A DNA stretch of 64,000 bases from positions 13,702,001 through 13,766,000 of the forward strand of contig NC_043004.1 in the NCBI RefSeq assembly GCF_006345805.1, written 5' to 3'. Positions 14,991-61,419 of this stretch are shown in pieces. This DNA comes from Octopus sinensis. Taxonomy: Eukaryota. Position numbers and translations under genes: made by a program. The notes under the pieces are model-generated. The model had not been told where the DNA came from, ran no database searches, and saw only the letters and a list, made by a program, of their open reading frames with translations. Within the stretch, counting starts at the first letter, position 1. Each line of letters starts with the position of its first letter.

Positions 14991-16066
14991 ACATTAAATA
15001 AGGTAGCTCTACAAAGCTGTTTGGTAGTAAATGGACACGTGCAATAGCTGAGTAGACTGAAGCGATGTGAAATTTAGTGTCTTACCCAAGAAAGGAAGAC
15101 ACGGTCCGATCCTAGAATTGAACCCTGGAATACAGAAACTTATGCTTGTGAAGTAAATCGCCTAACCGCTATACCATGTACATTCACAATGATACAAATG
15201 TACCCTACAAAAGTTCTTATGAAACAAAATATCAAACGTAGTACGTAATAAGCATGACAGTCAGAGCCTGGGAGATTAATACAGATTTTCCTTGCAAAAT
15301 TGCCGAAGACATCAAGTAAACTATATCTAACTCGGTATATTATTTCCAACAAAATTCACACACATACACACACACAACACACACACACACACACACACAA
15401 CACACGCAGCAGCACACACACACACGCACAAACACACGCATACATATAAAGATATTTAGAGAGATAGATGGATAGATATGGATATAGATATACAAAAATA
15501 AAATAAATATAAGAGAGTGGTCACTATATGGCTCACTCTAGCACTAGCTAATCCAAAAGGTTTCAACATATTCATATGTTTATACATATATACATAAATA
15601 TATGTATATATATATTTATATATATATATATATATTTATATATAAATGCACACACACACACACATACACACACATATATATATATACGTTGTGAGGATGG
15701 AAAGCAGAAACAATTCTCAAAAGAGAGGTGTCAGGAAAATGATAAAAGAGAGAAGCAGGTAAGTGTATCAGCTAAGATCCATCAACTTAAATGCAGTTAC
15801 ATCATAAAGAAAACTACCTAAACAACCGAGGTTTCTTACATATGTGATACGTTCCGAAAATTCAATACAAAACCATTTATATAGGTGTGTGTATGTGTGT
15901 ATGTGTGTGTTTACCAATGAAGTATGTTATATATATATAATATATACATATATATACAAACACACACATATATATATACATACATACATACATGCAGACA
16001 TACATATCATATATATAATATATATATATAATATATACTTACATATATATGTGTATATATATAGTA

Positions 16067-16112
<46 letters not shown>

Positions 16113-16273
16113 AATGTATGTATACGTAAGCAAATAAGAAAACCACGACCTCGCATCGGTTAGGAAATGAAAGTACGTCATAAGTTAACTATAATGATAA
16201 ACAATAGCAACAACAATGGTTGATGATGATGGTGTTGGTGGTGGTGGTGGTGGTTTTAGTTATGATGGTGGTG

Positions 16274-16323
16274 ATAATAATATAAATAATAATAATAACA
16301 ACAACAACAACAACAACAACAAC

Positions 16324-16380
<57 letters not shown>
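16274..16380. repeat. (TAA)n/(CAA)n microsatellite
   Basis: Directly visible. Confidence 0.9.
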
Positions 16381-16382
<2 letters not shown>

Positions 16383-17226
16383 ATATATACCGTAGTCATT
16401 CACAAAATTTCTTTTTGGCCAATGCCACCTTAGAGAAAATTAATTTAACTTGAAAAGGTGTTTCATTCGCAAGACGTGTTAATTACCTAATCCAAACTAA
16501 TCTTCTCCAGGTGCAAAGACATTTACAGCAAGAGAAAACCGAATGAATAGTCGTGCATTTCCAAACTACGTGATTCCACCAAGAGTAGTTACTGGGGTGT
16601 TAATGAACTGGAGATGAGAATTATAACAAAAATAGAAGAAATCTAGTCTTGTTTAGTGGTCAGAAGGACAAAGATAATGTAATAGAAGTGTTTATTAGCA
16701 CACATAATAGAGAGGAAGTGAAAGAGATAAGGGGGAAATAATTAAATAACCATTAAACTACGAGTAAGTTTTCAAATAATTCAGCTCTCTACGACTCGTT
16801 TCTTACTCAAGTCTTAACGTTGGTATTTTTTTACTTCTGAGAAAATGAAGGAAATTTCAGTGACCTCAAATTGCAATTCTCCCAACTCTATTTCATGTTT
16901 CAATGACTAAACAATAGAACTTTACATCAATCGTGAACAACATTAAACTTGAAAATGTTGACTATTTTAAAGGGCGTGTGATAAGAAACCTATTCCCAAC
17001 CACGGGGTATTAAGTTCAGTTCCGCTGCTCCAAAGCGGCCAAAGACTTCTGAACGGATGTAGTGGACGAAAACTGAAAGAAGTTCGTCATAAATATGTAT
17101 GTGTACATATATACACACATATATACATACATACATATATACATACATACATACATATATACATACATATATACATACATACATATATACATACATATAT
17201 ATATACATACATATATACATACATAT

Positions 17227-17313
<87 letters not shown>

Positions 17314-17351
17314 TATATATATCTATGTATATATATATATATATATATATA

Positions 17352-17549
17352 TAGGGAGAATTCACAAAAGTACAAAAGACGAAGACAGATGGTGTAGACA
17401 ACAAACAGATGTATTAGTTTAAAACGCTCGGGAAGTGAAAAAGTTTTAACGTTTCGAGCCTACGTTCTTTCACAGAAAGGAAAACACAGAAAGAAACAAG
17501 GTAAGGTGGGAAAATAAAGAATGGTAGTGGCTAGCGATTCTACATGGCG
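17352..17549 (-). repeat. ~190-bp interspersed repeat with hammerhead-like motif, copy 1
   Basis: Highly similar to 19594-19778; partial inverted copy at 51638-51698. Confidence 0.75.
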
Positions 17550-17850
17550 AATATATAACTATAACTATATATTATATATATTATATATATATATATATAT
17601 TATAATACGACGGGCTTCTTTACAAGCCTTTAGTTAGCCCGAGGCTACAGTAGCAGGACAGTAGCCCAAGGTGCCACTCAGTGAGACTGAACCTGAACTA
17701 TGTGGTTGGGAATGAACTTCCTACCACACATTATATCTATCTATATATATATATTATATATAATATATAAGTAGGAAGTGGAAATGTCCCAGAAGTAAGT
17801 CTATGAAATTTCAATTTAAGAGGTACTTTAATAAAATATTATATAAAAAA

Positions 17851-17890
17851 GATATTACCAGTTTCGATGTATCTCATCTTATCAAATATC
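17851..17890 (-). ncRNA. Minimal type I hammerhead ribozyme (U3-A8 variant)
   Basis: GAUAU-UUGAUAA-GAUG(AGAUA)CAUC-GAAAC-UG-GUA-AUAUC: stem I GAUAU/AUAUC, stem II GAUG/CAUC, GAAA, GUA triplet. Confidence 0.7.
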
Positions 17891-18004
17891 AGAAAAATTT
17901 GAAGGAAAGACAGTTTATCTTCTGTCTGGGGATCAAGAACATGTTCTTCACCCCGAGATAGAAGATGAACTGTTTTTACTTCAAATTTTTATAAATTTTT
18001 ACTT

Positions 18005-18042
18005 ATATTTGATAAGATAAGATACATCGAACCCGGTAATAT
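18005..18042 (+). ncRNA. Degenerate hammerhead ribozyme, partner arm
   Basis: AUAU-UUGAUAA-GAUA(AGAUA)CAUC-GAACC-CG-GUA-AUAU; GAAA mutated to GAAC. Confidence 0.5.
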
Positions 18043-18345
18043 TTCTTTATATATATATATTTTTTTTTATTAAACTCCCCCTTAAATTGAAATGTCTTAG
18101 ACTTAAACCTGTGCCAATTCCACCTCCATCTTTTATATTTTATTTAATTATTTTTTTTTTCCAGTTTCCCTGTTTAAATGAAGACATATATATACTATAT
18201 ATATAAATATGATTTGTTTACATCCTCTATATTTTTCCAACTAATATATAGACATATTATATATATATATTATATATATATTATATATATATTATATATA
18301 TAAATATATATATATTATATATTATATATATTATATGTGTGTGTA

Positions 18346-18380
<35 letters not shown>

Positions 18381-18396
18381 CATACAAGCACACACA

Positions 18397-18436
<40 letters not shown>

Positions 18437-18676
18437 TATATATATTAAATATATATGGTTTACCATATTTGTTAAGAACGCAGTACAGTACCGTACAGGT
18501 ATAAAGCTCGTCCACCTTCAGATTTACTATGTTGCTATCCAATATGCATTATACGTACTTCTACGTTTTGCGTTTGGACATTTGTTGGGTTGTGAATAGA
18601 TAATTGGAAAAAAAATTGTGGCTATTAAAAAAATAAATATCCGACCGTACTCTTTGTTGTTGACTCCAATTATTTC

Positions 18677-18727
<51 letters not shown>

Positions 18728-18932
18728 TATATATATCCATATACTATACCATATTATATATATATATGTATATATATAGTATATATATATATATATATAT
18801 ATATCTTTATTCTTGACTTGTTTCAGTCATTGACTGCAGCCATGGTGGAGCACCGCCTTTATTCGAACACATCGACTCCGAGTACGTTTTTTGTAAGCCT
18901 AGAACTTATTCTATCGATCTTTACCGAACCGC

Positions 18933-19032
18933 NNNNNNNNNNNNNNNNNNNNNNNNNNNNNNNNNNNNNNNNNNNNNNNNNNNNNNNNNNNNNNNNNNNN
19001 NNNNNNNNNNNNNNNNNNNNNNNNNNNNNNNN
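18933..19032. other. Assembly gap (100 N)
   Basis: Run of N; truncates a family B SINE tail at 18805-18932. Confidence 1.
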
Positions 19033-19219
19033 TACATACATATATATCTGTATGTACATTTATATACATATATAAATACACACGCACATAAATATATACC
19101 TATACATATACACACATATACATATACCTATATATATATATAATACTGGTATTTATCTTAATTTCCCCCTATATATATATATATACATAGACATTCCTGT
19201 ATATGTGTGCATATGTTTG

Positions 19220-19250
<31 letters not shown>

Positions 19251-19479
19251 ATGAGCGTTTATCTGCCTGTGTGTGTTTATTTTCACCATTAGTTAATTAT
19301 TACAAGTTGAGTGTTTTGGCTTTTAATTATAGTTTAATTGTTGTTGACATTCTTCTTAATGGGCTGTTATTGTTTGTCTGGCTTTATATGCCTGCCAGAA
19401 ATGCACACACGTAAACAAACACAAGTATACAGATATTACAGCGCAATCAGATATTTCACCATGTGCGTGTGTGCGCCTG

Positions 19480-19515
<36 letters not shown>

Positions 19516-19548
19516 TATATCTCTAAAGGTAAAATATCAATATTTATA

Positions 19549-19588
<40 letters not shown>

Positions 19589-19593
19589 ATATA

Positions 19594-19778
19594 TAGGGAG
19601 AATTCACAATAAAGCAAAAGACGAAGACATGTGGTGTAGACAACAAACAGATGTATTAGTATAACGCTCGGGAAGTGTAAATGACTTTAACGTTTCGAGC
19701 CTACGCTCTTCGACGGAAAGAAACACAGAAAGAAACTGGGAGAGAAAATAAAGAAAGTGTAGTGGCTAGCGATCTATC
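19594..19778 (-). repeat. ~190-bp interspersed repeat with hammerhead-like motif, copy 2
   Basis: Minus strand 19685-19720 CUUU-CCGUCGAA-GAGC(GUAG)GCUC-GAAAC-GUU-AAAG. Confidence 0.75.
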
Positions 19779-19878
<100 letters not shown>

Positions 19879-19954
19879 GCACTAAGCAAACACTCACACA
19901 CGCATGTATATGTGTGTACGTGTGTGTGTGTGTGGTGTGTGTGTGTGTGAGTAT

Positions 19955-20339
19955 GATAATTGCAATGAATACGGATATTAGTATATCTGCATACTTTTTT
20001 ATTTCTACTATCAGTTATCTAGCATATTTGATTTATGTGTCCGACGCACGTTTCAGCTGCAAAACCACCTAGTTATTGCTTTTGTATCCAGTTGCTTTCG
20101 ACTGGTTATTAAACTGTACAACTTAATTCAAGTTGTAGTCTGATGCGTCCGTAGATGGATCTTGAATAAAGCGGCATAGTCTAATAACCAGTCGAAGGTA
20201 ACTGGATGCAAATGCAAGTGTGAGGTGGCTTTGCAGCAGAAACGTGCATCGGACACATATAAATTTAATATACTGCATAATTAACTGTAGAAATGAAAAC
20301 TATGCAGATGTACTAACCTCTGTATTCATTGTTATTGTC
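19955..20339. repeat. Long imperfect inverted repeat (~175-bp arms, ~29-bp spacer)
   Basis: e.g. TTCGACTGGTTATTA / TAATAACCAGTCGAA and GTGTCCGACGCACGTTTC / GAAACGTGCATCGGACAC. Confidence 0.85.
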
Positions 20340-20542
20340 TTGGATACACATTCGATGAAATATTTATAACCCAGGGAAACGATTATAAATTTAACATCGT
20401 ATGAAAAACATTGGGATTGCTTACCTTAGGTAATCCTATGTGTTCCTTACAACTCGATGCGGTTAACGATATCCCAGACTATACCTGAGTGCTCGTACGA
20501 TACCAGCTTGGATACTCCATCCCTATCCATTATGTAAATATG

Positions 20543-20621
<79 letters not shown>

Positions 20622-21700
20622 TCAGCGGTGGTGCCCCAGCATGGCCGCGGCCTTCGGGCTAAAACATTTTAAAGGATTTTAAGGATTTATATACTTATAT
20701 ACATATATATATATATAATAATATATATATATACATATATATAATATACATATATATCTATATATACATACATATTCATATATGTATGTATGTATACATA
20801 TATATATATGTATGGTATATATGCATATATATATATATATTTAACATATTTATATATATTTATATATTCCATCTGTTTTTGTATTTTCATTCCAAAAACC
20901 TAACCCGAGGTAAGTTTTGGGCACGTGTTTCTGCTCCAATAAACGCCAGTAGTACACCAATTAAAGAATGGCCTCTCCTACTTAAAAATCATTTATGCAG
21001 ACGTCATGACACTGTTGAGAATGATATACATAAATGCTTTTTACTACACGTTTTCCACAACCCTAAACATACATTACACTTCATAAGACAAGAATAATAT
21101 AAAATTATGACAATAATTCTCTTAGATATTCAGTTAGACATTTACTAATTACAAATTTTGAATGGCAGCCCCAGCCACTCATCATATTATTTCGGTTGAA
21201 CATTCTCCTTATGGAAATACTTTTAGAATATTTCCCTCATTATGATTTGATTTGTTTTTTCGAAATATTTTTGACCTTTATAACATCATAATACTTCAGT
21301 TGCCCTTCACTTGGAATCACCTCTTAAGAATAAATAAGTTTTTACCCCTTTTCATTTTCAATATTTAACATACATTTCATATTTATGCCAAGTCCCTGAT
21401 GTGTATGTATATGTATAAGTTAATATCGAACAGTGAGAATGAGTGTCCCACAAAGAATTGGTGGATATATATATATATATTCTATATTTGTTGGTTAACA
21501 AGGCTACCAATGGTTTCAGTTAAAGAGAGAGCTTTACAATTATTCGGTCATGTCACAGGGGAACGATGGTACTGGTCTCCATTTCACTCAAAAGGGAGAC
21601 GAAGAACAACGTTACCCTGTGGTACGCTAGAATAACTGCAAAGAGCTCTCTTTACATGAAATCATTTGTGCCTTCTTTAACCCTCTAAAATGTGCGTGTG

Positions 21701-31278: not shown

Positions 31279-31338
<60 letters not shown>

Positions 31339-31431
31339 AGTAAGGAAAAGTTTTTTTAAAAATGCAGAATGCTCAAATGAAAGAAAAATTTTAATAAAAT
31401 GAGAAATTGATAAAATATATAAATATATATT

Positions 31432-31472
31432 TATTCAACCGGGTTTCGTCATTGTATGACTTGTCAAGAATA
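31432..31472 (-). ncRNA. Minimal type I hammerhead ribozyme (U3-A8 variant) in pLTR
   Basis: UAUUC-UUGACAA-GUCAU(ACA)AUGAC-GAAAC-CCG-GUU-GAAUA: stem I UAUUC/GAAUA, 5-bp stem II, palindromic CCGG in stem III, followed by AAUAAA. Confidence 0.75.
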
Positions 31473-31992
31473 TTTATGTTGTAAAAAGTTTTTTAAAAAT
31501 TAGAAAGGGGAAAAAAAGAAAATTGCATTGTTTTTTGTAAAAGAATAATGATAAAAATGTACAAAAATTAAAAAATAAGTTCTCCGATACATTGTGAGTT
31601 CGTTGTGTATCTTGAGTTTTATGGTTGTTTACGAAAAAAATTACTTGAGGTGTTAAGATCCAAAGGGATTAAGAGCATGTGTTGTTGTTAATTCAGCATG
31701 TTGCAGGACAGGAAGTAGTAGTAATTGTGGTCCTGGTTCTTCAGTTCCTGTGTTGTGAGTAAGGGGAGACAACTCTTTTGAGTTCTTCAATAAAACCCAA
31801 ATTATAAAATTATCATTTTAGCTTCATTTGCGTTATCTTTTTTATATAATTGCTTGTTAACTTAACTTTCAGATTTTAACACTTGATTTATATTATTTCA
31901 ATTATATAAATCTGCATAGACAATTGCATTTCAAATTGTCATATCATTTATAATAAAAATGATAGTAATAACAACAATAGTAAAAATGATAT

Positions 31993-32550
31993 TTAAAGAA
32001 TATAAGTTTTAGCTTGAAGTGATGAATGCATGGTATCTTTATATATTTGTGTTAGTCCATCCATGAAGAGTGAGGTAGAGAAAGGAAGTTTGATCAACGA
32101 GGAGTTGCATATTAAGTTGTGTTTGGAATTTTCAATAAAGAGATTCTCCTTGTTAATTCTCTCCTGTGTGGTGATCCCGTCTTTACATTGGTAGAAGGGG
32201 AATATATAGAATTTGGGGTTTAAGTCTTTAGCACATGAGTCTAAGTGGTCACTCAGTGGAATTTGTCGGTATTCCGGGAGATTTATTTGTTCTTTATGCA
32301 CCGTTACTCGTTTACGTAACGGGAGACTCGTTTGTCCAACATAATTATGTTGGCAACCAGCGCATGTGAGAACGTAGATAAGGTTCTCGGAGGAACAGGA
32401 GAAGTTAGTCTTGATTTTAAACTTCGTACCTTGTTTGAAGGTAAATTCAGAGCCTTCAAGTAGAAAGGGGCAGGTACCACAGTTTGAGCGTGCACATTTT
32501 TTTGCTGTTGGGGGTGGATGTGGTGTGTGAAGTTTGGCATTTGTCAAGAG
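31993..32550 (-). pseudogene. GIY-YIG endonuclease domain of a Neptune-type Penelope-like element
   Basis: CARSNCGTC (Cx4Cx2C linker), CSSENLIYVLTCAGCQHNYVGQT..LRKR..H; RT missing. Confidence 0.9.
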
Positions 32551-32653
32551 TTTATTAAAATTTTCTTTCATTTGAGCATTCTGCATTTTTAAAAAAACTT
32601 TTCCTTACTTATCATTTCTCCACGTGCGGTCAACACAACCCCACCATTATTGA

Positions 32654-51011: not shown

Positions 51012-51580
51012 CAGGGTATTCCCCCCAAAACGTATGCACACTTTAGCAGCTGATAACTCAATTGGTGTTTTTTTACTTTGAAGATTAAATCCATTGGAAT
51101 TAATGATGGCCGTCAGACTAAGCTTTGAACAAAGGAGATTCCTTCTAAAATGCTACTGGAAGTGTGAAAATGCAGTCGAAGTGCAAAGACAGTTTAAGAG
51201 CGAGTTTTTCAAACAGATCCACCAACGCGACTTACGATCACTCGAATTAGAGATAAGCTTGAAGCCGATGGAACTGTTCAGAATGTCCACGAGAAGTGTT
51301 CCAGAAGACCACAAACATCGACAATCCCCACAATGCAAGAAGGAGTGCTGGAAACTTATCACCAAAGTCCAAGAAAATCTGTGCGGCAAGCGAGTCGTGA
51401 GGTAGGTATTTCAAAATCGTCTGTCCAACGCATTTTGAAGCGTTCCAAGATTAGCTCATGCGATTAATGTCGATGTTCCAAACCGAAGAGTGCAGTATTG
51501 CGAATGGTACTTGGCATATTGTGAAGAAGATGCACACTTTCCAACAAAGATTGTGTGGAGTGATGAGGCCACATTCAATT
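51012..51580 (+). mobile_element. Truncated Tc1/mariner-superfamily DNA transposon (5' TIR and transposase N-terminus)
   Basis: TA-CAGGGTATTCCCC end; frameshifted [64 protein letters not shown] (HTH plus first catalytic D). Confidence 0.85.
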
Positions 51581-53693: not shown

Positions 53694-53888
53694 CTCTTTC
53701 TCTCTCTCTCTCTCTCTCTCTCCTCTCTTATCGGTCGTGTTATTCTTTGCTCCGCAGTGAAAGTTTGTTTTTGTGCTGAAAAGTTTGAAAATTTGCTGTT
53801 TTGGTCGTCGAGGCCACTTCTTTTCTGCTATTGCAGCAGAGTTCTGCCTTTTTTCCCCCTTGTTTCAAGGGGGAAGTGACGAAAAGAC

Positions 53889-55497
53889 ATGAATTTACAA
53901 CCAGTCTCCTCCGAGTCGGAGGAAAACGTTGAAAATTTGTTTGAAGGCATGAAGGAGAAAATGCGGGAGGAGGAAGGTAGAAGTAAAGAGACGTCTCACG
54001 CGAGCGTCACAAAAGCAGACGACAATATGTCTGGCGAAGCTAGTAAACGACAAGATAAGGCAAAAATAAATTTTGCGAGTGCAGCAACTCGCCCCTGTGA
54101 AAACATCGTTATTAACAAAGAAGGATTAAAGAAGTACCAAAGTTTATTAAAAAAAGAAGGTGATAATGTGAAGTTGTTCCCTCCCAGTGAATTAATTTAC
54201 GCGACGGAGAGAAAAACTGTAATTTACAAGACTTATAATGTCAAAAATAAGAAAATTGAGTTCGTACAGAGAGAAGCCATTGAAAAATGTTTGAGGCCGA
54301 TATGGCAACAAACAAGTTATATAACAAGGGGTAGTCGCTTCGGCACGGTAGAGGTGCGTTTCCCTAGCGAAGGGAACATTCAACAAGAACGTTGAAGTCG
54401 GAAGAGGTAGTTCTTTTACCATTTTATTTAGGAATGAGAACTAGTAGAATAACGGTTACGGACATTCCGCCCGAAATAGATGTGGACTTCATAACAGCAG
54501 CGATTCTCTTAGGCAAAGAGGAAGAAATTGCCATTCTTCAGTCTAAAAGATATCGCCCCACAACCTGGTATGGACAGGACTTAGAGCTTGTGATCCAAGC
54601 GAACCCCTCGGACTTGGAAAAATTGCCAAGCACCCTCACCATTGGAGATACCACCTTGATGGTAATAGTCGAGGGAAGAAAACCGAGATGCTATAAATGT
54701 GGCGAGAAAGGCCACATAGGTCGAGGCGAGCTGAAGAAGACAGCGAAGAAAATACTACAGAGGCAAGCACGACGCCGAAAAAACAATTCACCGCTAGAAA
54801 TAGCAGCCACGTCGCGCACCCCAATTGCCGAAATTCAGCCGACAACGGGAGAAAACAACGACAACAACGATGACAACAACATCAACAACATCCAGGAGTG
54901 GGTCAACGTGGAAGCTTCAAAAAGAAGACGGAAACGGAAAAATCCACCCTCTTCGGATACACAGGACTATACTCTGACACAGACAAGCACACCCACACCC
55001 ACAAATACAGTCGCAAACACACACGTAGCCAAAAAAACACACACACTGGAAAAAGCACACACAAACACTCACACACCTACCACAAGCACGCACACACCTA
55101 CAAACACCCACGCTTCTACAAGCACACACACACCCACAAACACACACACACAGCCCCCTCCACAATCACCTAACAAAAAAAAAAGAAACACCTTCACGGC
55201 GATAAATAAAAACAATAACCATTAAGGGAAAAAATTAATTTACTGAAATCGGCGAAAAAATATATCGCAACAGATATAAATAGTATTATATCCGAAAATG
55301 TAGAATTTTATACGATAGATAACGAGGATTATTTTGAAATTAAAAAATCTTTTGCGGAGGACGTAGGCCCGTTACAGATGAACTTTTCAAGCCATCTGTA
55401 CAAGCAATTCGCAAAAAAACTGACCTCGCAAAAACAAACACTCACAGACAGAAAAGATGAGGGTGAAACTACACCCTCTCTTCTGTTAAAACAGTAA
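53889..55497 (+). pseudogene. Tx1 ORF1 (gag-like), frameshifted
   Basis: ORFs 53889-54395 and 54392-55225; broken zinc knuckle EGRKPRCYKCGEKGHI; Thr/His low-complexity region. Confidence 0.8.
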
Positions 55498-55522
55498 GTT
55501 TTAAACATTCAACTAAATTTTC

Positions 55523-58500
55523 ACATTCTCGTTTAAACTCGGTTGTATAAATATTCGCGGCCTGGGGTCGTATTGGAAGCAAGGCTACCTCCCCTTACGA
55601 CCGAATCCAGACTGAGTGGGCTGCAGGCTTTTTCGCCCCTCTAAAACGGCTACGAGAAATACATTTCTCCCTGTCGACCTGGAGGGGGAGGAGGAGTGGC
55701 AGTGCTGGTCAGGAAAAACCTGGATTTAGAGATTAGAACTGTCTTTATAGATCCGGAAGGCAGGTTGGTCGTTTTGGATGTGACGCACAGCAGTGGTAAA
55801 GTGTTCAGGCTGGTCGCTGTCTATGCTCCCTGCGAAGGAAAAGCGGGCAGAAAGAGTATTTCAAAAGCCTAGAGAATTTTCTTGGCATGTCGAACACGTT
55901 AGTATTGCTTGGTGACTTCAACATAATTTGTGATGCAAGCGTAGATTATGTTGGCTCAAGAAAGAATACGAGGGGATTACCTCACCTCAACGATATGCTA
56001 AGTCGTTTCGAATTGGCAGATAGATTCAGACTGGACCATCCAGACATTCCAGAGTGGACCTGGGCAAGAAACGACGGGTCGTCCAGATCTTATATCGATA
56101 GAATCATAACTAGAAGGAAAGATAAGAAAATACTTAGCTGTCCACAACCCATATCGTCAGCTACAGCGATCACAAATTAGTGACCTGTACGCTCGACATA
56201 GATAGCATGTGTAGACGAGGTACCGGCTACTGGAAGCTAAACAAGTCACTATTGGACTGTGAAGCCTACAGGAATCGGATTAAACAATTAGTAATGAGGG
56301 CGTTAACCGGATCCATTATCAACAATAAATGGTGGTACGCTCTGAAAAGAGCCATCAAATTTGAGTCAATTAGGTTTAGCAAAGAACTAGCTAGTGCTAG
56401 AAACAAAGTAGAAAAGGAACTAGTTAAGGCTATAGAGGAGGCAATGAGGTCAGGCTGTGCATCGAAAGTATTAGCGGCGAGGTTAGCACTAGACCAACAT
56501 CTCCAAGCTAAACATGAAGGGTGCATTATTAGGGCTAAGATCCGTGCAATGAGACAGGAAGGGATCAACGCAGCCGGATGGGCCCGGGTGGTAGAGGGCC
56601 AGCGTGGCAACAACTCAACCATTCGATCCTTGACGGGCCCAAATGGTCGATTAGTAAACGAACCCGAGGAGATGTGCAAGGTGTTTCATGATCATTTCGC
56701 CCAGCTATTCGGGAGGAGCGGCGAGCTGGAGCGCGGGGAGAAGCTCGCAGACTTCCTAGCCGGTTCGCCGCGTCTATCGGGGCCGGACGCGGAATCTTGT
56801 GAGGCGCCGATCACAGCCAAAGAAGTCGAGGATATGTTGGCAGAATGCGGCGGGGACAAATCGCCGGGACTCGATGGTCTGCCTTACGAACTCTATAGTA
56901 GCATGCCAGACTTGTTTGGGCACCTACTTGCATGCGTGTACACCAACTGGCAGCAGAACGGGAGAATTCCTAAGTCTGTGAGCCGAGGGGTGGTAGCGTT
57001 GTTAAGAAAGGACCCAAACAAGGGGGATTTAATTGATAATTTCCGGCCTATCACTCTGCTTAACGCAGAGTTGAAGATCTTGGCCAAGGTCTTAGCAAAA
57101 AGGTTGGCGAGGGTCGTGGGTGAACTTGTTGGCGAGGCGCAAACTTGCGCCATCCCTGGAAGGACCATCCACGACAATCTCCACTTTCTACGCTATGCCT
57201 TAGAAAGGGTAAATAGGATTCCTGGCAAGGGTGGGGCTATGGTCCACTTGGACCAATCGAAAGCGTTTGATAGGGTGGACCATCAGTATCTGGCGGCGGT
57301 CCTCGCGGCGGCTGGCTTCGGCCCGACCTTCCGCGGATGGATCATCGCTTTATACAGCAACATCGAATCGGTAGTTCGGGTAAATGGTTTCCTTTCGGAG
57401 CCGTTCAGCATTGAACGTTCGGTACGTCAAGGGTGTCCTCTCTCCCCGCTTCTCTACGTTTTGGCCCTCGAGCCGTTGCTGAGGAGGTTGGAAACTATGA
57501 GAGGCACCCCGCAAGATCTAGGGTGCGGAAAGTCAGCTTCGGCGTATGCGGACGACATCACCGTCATCGTTTCCCGAGTCGAGCACCTACAGTGGGTGGG
57601 TGAGGCCTTAAGGGACTACGAAGCGGTGGCAGGAGCGAAAGTCAACCGGGATAAATCGGTCGGCTTGCAACTCGGCACCTGGAGGGGCAAGTCGATGTCT
57701 TCCGACAGCGTCGTAGGACGTTGGACGGAAGGACCGGTGAAAATGCTTGGGATCTGGTTAGGTCCAGATCTCCAGATAGAGAAGAATTGGAGCGAGGTGG
57801 CGAGAAAGGTGGCTCTCCTAACTCAGACATGGTCTGAACGGAATCTGTCCTTGAAAGGGAAGGCGGAGGTTGCAGAAGTGTTTATCGCCTCTGTAATCAC
57901 TTACCGCCTAACCGTAGTGCCTTGCCCCGATTCGTGGCTGAACAAACTGGAACGCATGCTCTTTCGCTTTTTGTGGAGGGGCAGCAGACCTCTTGTAAGG
58001 CGCTCTATTTGCTGCCAAAAGCCGCTGAACGGTGGGTTAGGGATGCCGTGGCTAAAAATGCGCAGACATGCGCTCAGGCTTAGGCACCTCTGGATTTACC
58101 TGGACGGTGAGCAGGTGTGGTCTCCGTTTGTCAAGCTGTTATTTCCACAGTTCACATCGTTTAACGAACTGAACCCATGGATCAAGTGTAGACCGAGGTT
58201 GGGCATGTGGCATGCAGAGTGCTATCAGGCACTCGTGCTTCTCTCCCAGTCGGGCAACGCCGGTGGCGGGGCTACTACCGCGTTCTTCTATAGAGGGTTA
58301 GTAGAGTTTAAGTGTGACGACGTCCTAGGAGAAACTCTGGGCTTCGACGAAAATCAACTGGCCAGCCTGTTCCAAAGAACATTCGGTCCGGGGCCTATGG
58401 ATAATTACCAAAAGTCCCTGGCCTGGCAATGTTACAGAGGAGCTTTACCGGTTCGAGATAAGCTCTTTAGACATGGGTGTGCACCTTCGCCGGTTTGTGC

Positions 58501-58896
58501 AAGATGTAAGAGGGACAGTGAAACTGTCCTGCACGCGATTGTGCAATGCCCCAAGGTGACTGAACTCTGGACTTATGTCGAACACCTGCTGTCGCATTCG
58601 AGAAGAGTACAACTGTCGAGCGAATCTGTAATTAAGATAGTTCCGCCGACCTTCCTGAATAGGGAGGAGCGAGCCTGTTTTCTTTCGGTAGTTGCTATGG
58701 CGAAAGAAGTAGTGTGAAGACGAGAGTAAAAGGAATTGCAACAGGCATGTTTATCTCCAGTCTCGAACTAATCGACTTTTTCGTTTTCCACATGAAACGG
58801 AAAATAAGGCTGGAGAAGAAATGCCTGTCGCAAAGTGTGTTTCGTAAAAGATGGAAGTCTATAGCAAGTATGTTGCGAGTGAAAGAACCTATTTAA
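55523..58896 (+). pseudogene. Tx1 ORF2: APE endonuclease, reverse transcriptase, C-terminal zinc finger
   Basis: INIRGL, VYAP, LLGDFN, YIDR, SDH (frameshifted EN); GYWKLN, KSPGLDG, FRPITLLN, LDQSKAFDRV, VRQGCPLSP, YADD (57545); CARC..ETVLH...C; premature TGA at 58715. Confidence 0.95.
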
Positions 58897-59131
58897 TCGA
58901 GAATGTAAAAAAGGATAAAGCAAAGTCTTCAGTGTGAGTATGTGGTTTGTGGGGTCGACCGCGTCCTCCGCTTCATTTTTTGTTAATCACTCATTCTCAT
59001 TTAATTGTATATATATTAATTGTTTGTTTATTCATGTTTCGTCTCATTCGATACCCTGACCCCAACGTTTGTTTTGTCCCCTCTTTTTCTCAACCTTATG
59101 GTGAATAAAGAAATACTCTCTCTCTCTCTCT

Positions 59132-61419
59132 TTTCGATTTACAGAATCATGCTCAAAATGGTTTCGTCACTTGCACGCAACATCTTTGCTACATTCACCC
59201 ACCTTTTTTTGAAACTTTCACGAGTCAAAATCTGCCTCCCCATTCTCACCTTCCTTTTCAAGTGGTACTTGAAAAAGTTGATGAGCGATTGGCCAGAGAA
59301 GTAAGTGTTTGTCTCTAATCCTTTTGCTCGAGTCCGCCACACACATTCTTTCACCATGGCCATCAGTATGATGAAGACTGCCTTGCCTTCCCGGATGAAG
59401 GAATGATAGACTCGGCCGACAGGCGGACTCGTCCCACACGTGACAGCAGCCGTTCGGCATAAGCCCACAGGTCCGAAATGGTTGGACACTGTACGAGTGC
59501 GTGCAGAACGGTTTCGTCGCTCTGACCGCATTTCGAGCAAGTCGGTCCGGTGTGTCTCGAACCGTGCCTGTCGAGCTTATCCCGAACAGGTAATGCTTCT
59601 CGATAGCACTGCCAGGCCAGGGATCTTTGGTGATTGTCCATGGGTCCCGGCCCTAAAGTTGTCCTGAACAGGCGGGTCAGGTGTTCCTCGTCGACGCCCA
59701 GAGGCCCCGAGCACGCATCCTAGTCTGACAACGCATCCTTCGTGTTTGGCGTTGAAGTATTGGTGGAGGGCCAACCTCGCTTCCAGTACGTTGGACGCGA
59801 TGCCAGTTCTAAGTGCCTCTTCTAATTTCTTAACTATGTCTCCCTCTATTCTATTTCGTTCTAATGCTAGGGCCTTACTGTACCTAACCGATTCTGCTTT
59901 AATTGCTTTCTTTAGGGCATACCACCATCTGTTGTTGATGATGGCACCCGTCAATGCTCTCTTAACTAATGTGCTAATTCGGTCCCTGTAAGCCTGGCGT
60001 GCCGTGAACGACGCGTTCAGCTTCCAGTAACCGGGACCCTACCTGTGTCTTATCTAAGTCAAGTGTACAAGTCACAAATTTGTGGTCTATGTAGCTGACT
60101 ATATGGAATTGTGGACAACCTACACTATCCTTATCCACTGTCCTACTGAATACTCTAAGTACGATCTGTACGACCCGATGCGGTTTCTCCATGTCCACAT
60201 TGGCACATTCGAGTGGTCCAGTCGGTACCTGTCAGACAGTTGGAAACGTCTGAGAAGGTCTTTGAGACATTTGCATCACCTATTACTATCTCTGCCCACG
60301 TAGTCTAGATGCGTGTCCAGGGTAGCGTTCCAATCCCCCACTAAAAGAAAAGATCGAGATGTTCCCAGGAAAACCTCTAGACGTCGAAAGAAATCTCGCC
60401 GGTCTGTTAAGGACGGTGCATAAACTCTTATCAGTCGAAAAGCACACCCATCGACATCCAAGACGACCAGCTTACCCTCCAGGTCTAGGAAAATTGCTCT
60501 TACTATGAGGTCCAGACTCTTCCGAAGAAGCACAGCGGTGCCATCTCCGCCCATTCTCGGCAGACACGGAGAAAAATAAATGTCGAAATGTCCGCCGAAC
60601 ATGTGCTGGAGTGCCCGCGGGCTGTGGAGTCTGGTCTCACTGATGGCTATGATATGCAGATTTTGTTACTTGCTGTTGTTTAACAGGTAGCTTTGTTTCC
60701 AAGGCGACCCCAAGCCACGTAGATTTATACTTCCTATTTTGAGTATGTTCCTATTAAAAGTTGTGTTTTACACACGAAAGGGAGAAGAAAGAGAAAGAGA
60801 GAGAGAGAGAGTCACTTACTGTCCGAAAGTTCTTTGTTCTTCACCTTTCAGTCTTCTCCCAGAAGGTTTTTGTATAGTTTTTTTGGACAGGTATTTTTGA
60901 AATCTCCCAACTGCATCAGGGTAGAGAGATTTCACGGTGCTGTGTGTGTTCTGTATTATGTGTATGATTTTAATGTGTTGTGGTGATGTTGTGCGTAGGT
61001 GATTCTTTGTTTTGGTATCATTTTCTGTTATGTTGGCGTTTGACCTAATGTGTTCCATTAGGTTTGGGTTGTTGGTGTTTATGGCTGTCAACATTGTTGT
61101 GGGGGTTGGTGTTAATGTGCTTGTGTAGATGCTTTTGTTTTCTGCGGGTGTTTTGGTTTCGGGAGTGGTAAACCTCCCTCCTTTCTTTGCCTGCTTCTCT
61201 ATTATTTTTTTCCCTTTTTTCTCCTTCCCCCTGTGGCCACTTGCCAATCCACTGTGTCGTCTTCATCTGACATGTCAGAGGAATCAAAAGGTGGGAGGGG
61301 AAGTGTATTGGGGTCTATTTCTGAGTGTGTTGACTTTGTTGTTGGTGTTTGTGCTGGTGTGTGACAGTTGGGGTGTGGTGTATGGGTTTTGGGGGTGGGG
61401 TATGAATCTTTTGAAGTTG

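Follow-up and report, generated by a model that had tools for sequence, protein, structure and literature searches.

A palindrome at positions 17766..18136 of a 64-kb window of Octopus sinensis DNA (the whole stretch analysed, 64,000 nucleotides of contig NC_043004.1) poses a question of origin. An earlier note, made from the letters alone, had described a palindrome without spacer that carries two outward-facing hammerhead ribozymes, and had proposed either an extremely 5'-truncated Penelope-like element (PLE) or a non-autonomous fold-back element. The palindrome itself is clear. Its arms, 17766-17941 and 17942-18136, are identical at 148 of 176 alignment columns (84%), and the local alignment score is 210, compared with a mean of 43.5 and a maximum of 72 for 500 shuffles. 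The predicted minimum free energy is -149.7 kcal/mol (z = -19), and none of 100 shuffles folded equally well. The centre is symmetric about the axis between ACA and TGT (17941/17942), with no spacer, as had been claimed.

The end of the insertion, on the other hand, had been placed too early, since the insertion continues beyond 18136 to 18243. Aligned to the family majority sequence, the left arm (17756..17944, minus strand) is a pLTR copy covering family positions -3 to about +190, followed by a TA run; it has two 11-nt deletions and no tail. The right arm (17939..18133, plus strand) is a pLTR copy covering positions -3 to +196. Common to both is the self-complementary ACATGT (17939..17944), where the junction coincides with the family's hot spot of 5' ends. 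Beyond the right arm lies a 62-nt AT-rich insert (18134..18195, plus); it separates the arm from the family's ∼40-nt PLE tail (18196..18243, plus; about +196 to +242), which is present on this side only and runs into (TA)n. Both flanks of the insertion are (TA)n, in which a target site duplication is unreadable. The 62-nt insert also occurs in a near-identical contig copy (L024; G000:C8688:30112-31801), which is 96% identical to the right arm plus flank and begins at the palindrome centre. This copy is probably an alternate assembly version broken at the hairpin.

A descriptor scan of both strands of the 64-kb window returned two hammerhead motifs. The left arm contains an intact minimal type-I motif (17851..17890, minus strand), with features as in Cervera and De la Pena (PMC4209133). 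It comprises stem I (GAUAU/AUAUC, 5 bp), the U3-A8 core UUGAUAA, stem II (GAUG-AGAUA-CAUC, 4 bp) followed by GAAA, and a near-palindromic loop CUGG (CCGG, palindromic, in the family majority) followed by GUA. Cleavage is predicted between 17856 and 17855, after the A at 17856. The twin in the right arm (18004..18043, plus strand) keeps the core, but three changes damage it, affecting stem I at 18004, stem II at 18019 and A15.1 at 18032. Thus, both parts of the earlier description, a complete minimal hammerhead on the left and a decayed one on the right, agree with what can be read. An Rfam search of 15000-21000 gave no hammerhead among 97 matches up to an E-value of 5, so the motif call rests on the descriptor scan and the literature.

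To what does the arm belong? A DNA search of the 2.72-Gb genome gave 652 candidates, and the 40 of these that were scored included many full palindromes. Because a palindromic query favors copies with the same centre, sampling was switched to short exact patterns, which gave 21, 72, 113 (100 listed) and 71 matches; reversed controls gave none. Several arms extend upstream into common sequence that leads into a GIY-YIG domain. Among 30 loci with the GIY-YIG region, the arm lies downstream in the same orientation in 20, and an inverted arm lies upstream in five. At one locus (L144), the Pfam GIY-YIG match is above the cut-off (E = 1.5e-5). Parent translations contain a CCHH pattern and a CxxC linker of the form C-x4-C-x2-C, the linker being carried by L056, L066, L073 and L144. 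Translations from L145 and L146 contain reverse transcriptase (RT)-like motifs. These RT fragments had no match to Pfam RVT_1 or to PDB, and the Atlas offered a lead, at 0.92, to a cluster in which 15% of members carry RVT_1; the RT call therefore rests on the motifs and this lead.

The order of parts in another locus, L179, is endonuclease (EN) end, UTR, arm, tail and ORF start, with arm and tail directly abutting the ORF start. Here the tail, the same as in the window, continues into the ORF, and L176 has the same 5' sequence after the tail end. The pLTR thus forms a partial tandem at L179/L176, with one repeat before and one after the ORF. Since the arm lies downstream of GIY-YIG and also abuts an ORF start, we regard the window arm, on sequence grounds, as a true pLTR of an old PLE of Neptune/Nematis type (Neptune-like). 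The PLE origin suggested earlier holds in this respect, in that arm homologues do stand beside PLE ORFs and the family majority sequence retains the hammerhead core and stems. Arms average 92% identity to that majority, and the family is old; no intact full-length parent was found among the copies examined, all of which are broken. Long copies bear an adjacent inverted 3' piece with breakpoints elsewhere (-65, -72, -83, -223 and -279). L144 (3389-8774) has an inverted 3' piece and two 96% identical 2.3-kb parent copies across an assembly gap; the doubling is either genuine, as a partial tandem, or was introduced by the assembly. Contigs from four public runs contain many diverged arm copies, although contigs of this kind cannot show expression, starts or editing.

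For 210 unique arms, drawn from 340 raw hits, we then counted positions from the ACATGT centre (hits with <500 nt upstream were excluded, and at least three of the arms are duplicates of one event). The earlier idea of extreme 5' truncation proved only partly right, as the 5' ends are not scattered at random and instead bunch tightly around the centre. Sixty-six of the 210 arms start within -6..+6, and, when only arms with ends between -149 and +130 are considered, the fraction is 66/163 (p = 4e-44 versus uniform). The same holds for solo arms, those with no adjacent partner, 23 of 78 of which start in this interval (p = 6e-13). The left edge of the hot spot is abrupt, with 47 arms in -6..-1 versus 7 in -19..-7, and 36 arms extend past -150. 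Most of the 13 long copies listed retain a TATA-like TATATTTAAA, which starts 33 nt before the 5' boundary and has its TATTTAAA part at 31 nt. The boundary itself lies in what we take to be an initiator-like context. From this arrangement we infer that the hot spot represents a transcription start ∼31 nt below the TATA-like box, although the same 5' edge near -5 would be expected if RT stopped strongly there or if the master copy were short. We also asked whether the hot spot might be a 3' splice site and discarded the idea, because the ends retain AG and no upstream leader is common to them. Such a 5' hot spot of PLE copies may well already have been published.

How do two arms come to lie head to head? 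At 77 loci, arms occur as an adjacent inverted pair. In 29 of these, as in the window, the two arms both begin close to the centre, and at least one does so in 54, the remainder breaking elsewhere. The earlier note had offered a choice between copies sharing one centre, which would indicate a mobile unit, and copies with variable centres, which would indicate independent truncations. The outcome is a third one: junctions vary, yet the 5' ends are non-random. Such numbers are consistent with a large set of independent insertions, each limited by a hard template boundary, rather than with whole-unit copying or random truncation.

Taken together, the locus is probably a minimal insertion of an old Neptune-like PLE, consisting of paired head-to-head pLTRs in (TA)n that likely arose by two run-off RT primings and were likely joined through ACATGT. 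The element RNA would start near -5, and RT would prime on it twice internally, within the first pLTR. Both primings would run off the 5' end of the RNA, giving cDNAs of ∼200 and 245 nt. Both cDNAs would end in the self-complementary ACATGT, anneal there and be joined, which would yield exactly the junction of the window. The resulting stub lacks the upstream TATA-like box and so would be unable to copy itself, making it a dead end. The centre shared by many copies likely marks the start of the element RNA rather than a self-copying unit. Precedent comes from the anole PLE studied in vitro by Frangieh et al. (PMC11167929). There, nicking and extension occur on both strands of an AT-rich target. 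RT begins within the RNA at two positions, and the spacing between them is the tail. Truncating the RNA at its 5' end gives shorter products, and the template is mainly RNA that has not been cleaved.

The closest competitor assumes the same PLE origin and a single cDNA, which would reach the template end, fold at the ACATGT quasi-palindrome and copy itself. Junction palindromes are indeed read as self-priming by Arkhipova et al. (PMC3846280), and the two arms of a locus share variants, as a snap-back would predict. The loop II A/T variant agrees between arms in 42 of 46 pairs (p = 2e-8), and non-majority letters common to both arms of a locus number 71, versus 26 on average and at most 43 under permutation. 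The shared variants also suit two primings on the same template, and gene conversion between arms could explain them as well. Nearest-neighbour pairing recovered the own partner for only 7 of 58 arms; this weak signal is attributable to the copies being old and star-like, and the shared-variant tests were used for this reason. The position of the tail is harder to reconcile with snap-back, which predicts that the tailed arm is the one extending to the 5' end. Exactly one arm is tailed in 63 of 77 pairs (both in 1, neither in 13), and in pairs of unequal length the 5'-shorter arm has the tail 28 times and the 5'-longer arm 15 times. The activity of PLE protein on both strands in vitro (PMC11167929) also speaks against a single cDNA. 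Because the tail can be on either arm, two primings are favored over pure snap-back, which we judge unlikely.

Junction sequences bear on both of these readings and on a third, in which a non-autonomous palindromic unit, fold-back or MITE-like and ribozyme-bearing, is copied whole. The 29 same-centre pairs have junctions of varied form, one of which recurs in 5 of the 29. The recurrent form would fit a 2-nt fold-back, as in snap-back, and could also reflect limited amplification of a palindrome. In favor of the two-priming model, junction overlap in asymmetric pairs averages 2.45 nt versus 0.69 nt simulated, for the 22 of 40 pairs scored; the test excluded the other 18 (inserted letters or larger offsets), and counting these as zero gives ∼1.35 nt. 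Whole-unit copying draws further on the 29 pairs in which both arms start near the centre, and on the centre common to many near-full-length palindromes, a sample biased by the query. Against it, the centre is elsewhere in 48 of 77 pairs, and 120 of the 210 arms lack an adjacent partner. None of 180 columns separates tailed from untailed arms; this, together with the variable junctions, argues against a mobile unit. Moreover, same-centre palindromes are formed by both loop II subfamilies, the tail makes the ends asymmetric, unlike terminal inverted repeats, and the upstream TATA-like box is missing from the stub. The fold-back element moving as a unit, as the earlier note had it, thus finds no support in the varying junctions, the one-sided tail or the lack of diagnostic columns, and we consider this origin improbable. 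A MITE or fold-back DNA transposon was rejected on similar grounds (asymmetric ends, varying centres and junctions, unpartnered arms). Retrozymes consist of direct repeats in tandem whose hammerheads all point the same way. This class was rejected as well, the arms being inverted and the family continuing into an ORF with EN and putative RT.

Finally, the locus might be a regulatory hairpin or ribozyme switch exapted by the host, serving as an ADAR or small-RNA substrate. The strong predicted hairpin and the left hammerhead, with all its core letters, would suit such a role; this seems very improbable, given that the arms match each other no better than typical copies do (84% versus a within-locus mean of 87% across copies, with a longest perfect pairing run of 14 bp), that the right hammerhead is decayed, that hammerhead formation is predicted to be costly, and that a Pfam scan of 72 of 113 filtered ORFs found no host exon in the window.

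The cost of the hammerhead was estimated by folding the minus-strand read-through RNA. The hairpin is predicted at -163 kcal/mol versus -119 with the hammerhead fold forced, so the ribozyme would cost ∼44 kcal/mol against the hairpin, and the predicted pair probability of stem II is 0.0. In this model, the arms of the read-through RNA pair with each other and the ribozyme is locked inside the hairpin. Among the 210 arms, 5' ends at the hammerhead cut site (+97) amount to two independent arms, hence no peak. Four arms start at +97, which might have suggested one, but three of these are duplicates of one event. The three (L303, L314 and L317) are near-identical, each arm starting exactly at the predicted cut behind a common foreign flank; they are one event that was duplicated afterwards. 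The missing peak agrees with uncleaved RNA serving as the template.

Inverted pLTR pairs, minimal hammerheads with U3-A8 cores, and hammerhead pairs on opposite strands are all of kinds already published, and the octopus motifs may be listed in the supplements of the papers cited here. Cervera and De la Pena (PMC4209133) describe minimal hammerheads in PLE pLTRs with low, dimer-dependent activity, ∼1,300 hits of the U3-A8 variant in Schistosoma, and, in the same genus, dual motifs on opposite strands 100-700 bp apart. With these metazoan PLE hammerheads the window shares the U3-A8 core, the G10.1-C11.1 pair, a short stem I, the dimer-suited palindromic stem III/loop 3 and the opposite-strand pair. 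Inverted 5'-truncated copies, junction palindromes and a one-sided tail are described by Craig et al. (PMC8557442) and Arkhipova et al. (PMC3846280); the tail of EN+ PLEs is given as 30-40 bp at one end (PMC3846280; general scheme in PMC8557442). In the octopus family, we likewise find GIY-YIG/CCHH linked to the arm, a one-sided tail, an inverted adjacent copy and a hammerhead motif in the pLTR. For the Neptune and Nematis clades, PMC8557442 gives a C-terminal GIY-YIG and a CX2-5CxxC linker between RT and EN. The octopus parent copies have the same layout of putative RT, C-x4-C-x2-C linker and GIY-YIG with CCHH, so that the linker falls within this definition; unlike these references, every parent copy seen is broken.

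Adineta Pen2a/Pen3a (PMC3846280) resemble the window in their head-to-head arms of ∼200 nt, palindromic junction and tail at one end, and resemble the family in the pLTR partial tandem ahead of the ORF and the microsatellite target. They differ in that an ORF lies between their arms, whereas the whole insertion in the window amounts to two pLTRs. In Pen2a, TATA is inside the pLTR, while in the octopus family the TATA-like box is upstream of the boundary and outside the stub; the family's 5' boundary is, in addition, a quantified hot spot. Anole Poseidon PAc (PMC11167929) is similar in its two RT start sites defining the tail, its AT-rich targets and the extension of both strands, and also in the use of uncleaved RNA as template, in line with the lack of a 5'-end peak at the cut site in octopus. 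In PAc, RT initiates 111-118 nt inside the ORF and the hammerhead overlaps the start codon, whereas in octopus both hammerhead and tail precede the apparent ORF start, the tail stopping immediately short of it. A literature search for octopus Penelope elements with A-to-I editing and inverted repeats found none.

Other elements lie in the same window. A second, different PLE stub at 31334-32611 has the classic layout with a ∼70-nt inverted 3' piece; on its minus strand is the end of a GIY-YIG ORF that includes a CxxC linker and matches Pfam below the cut-off (E = 7e-4). The U3-A8 hammerhead of this stub, at ∼31471, keeps the core, its stems I and II differing from those of the octopus-arm family by compensatory changes. 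About 200 nt left of the palindrome, at 17355-17552 (minus), is a decayed pLTR-like piece of another hammerhead-type repeat. This repeat, which we assume to be a PLE, is far more abundant, with a contig depth about 100-fold higher than the arm has. A remnant of a very abundant SINE, presumably of octopus type, occupies 17609-17731 and adjoins the TA flank of the insertion on its left. An inverted repeat at 20034-20259 has 99-nt arms, 82% complementary and 28 nt apart. Helix-turn-helix fragments of DNA transposase type (DUF4817, HTH_32) occur at 51082-51464, and one or more LINE-type elements at 53880-61262, with ORF1-like frames and an endonuclease (Exo_endo_phos). Within the latter, an 859-aa RVT_1/zf-RVT frame without stop (56138-58714, plus) is followed by an inverted endonuclease piece on the minus strand.

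The locus by itself is ordinary decayed retroelement debris; the pattern across the family is of some value. The origin of inverted pLTRs in PLEs is described as still unresolved in PMC8557442 and PMC11167929. Tentatively, the family could be read as an in vivo record of PLE integration, with double priming in the first pLTR, run-off at a TATA-defined start, and a palindrome in the first ten nucleotides that anneals the cDNA ends. If this is true, hundreds of genomic junctions would chart where the RNA begins, the two positions at which RT starts and the way the ends are joined, and would indicate that copying mostly takes place on RNA whose hammerhead has not been cut. The sharp 5' boundary at a built-in palindrome, the tail on either arm and the same-template arms give predictions for the in vitro PLE system. 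The octopus lineage is known for heavy RNA editing, and long dsRNA may commonly arise in it from such stubs.
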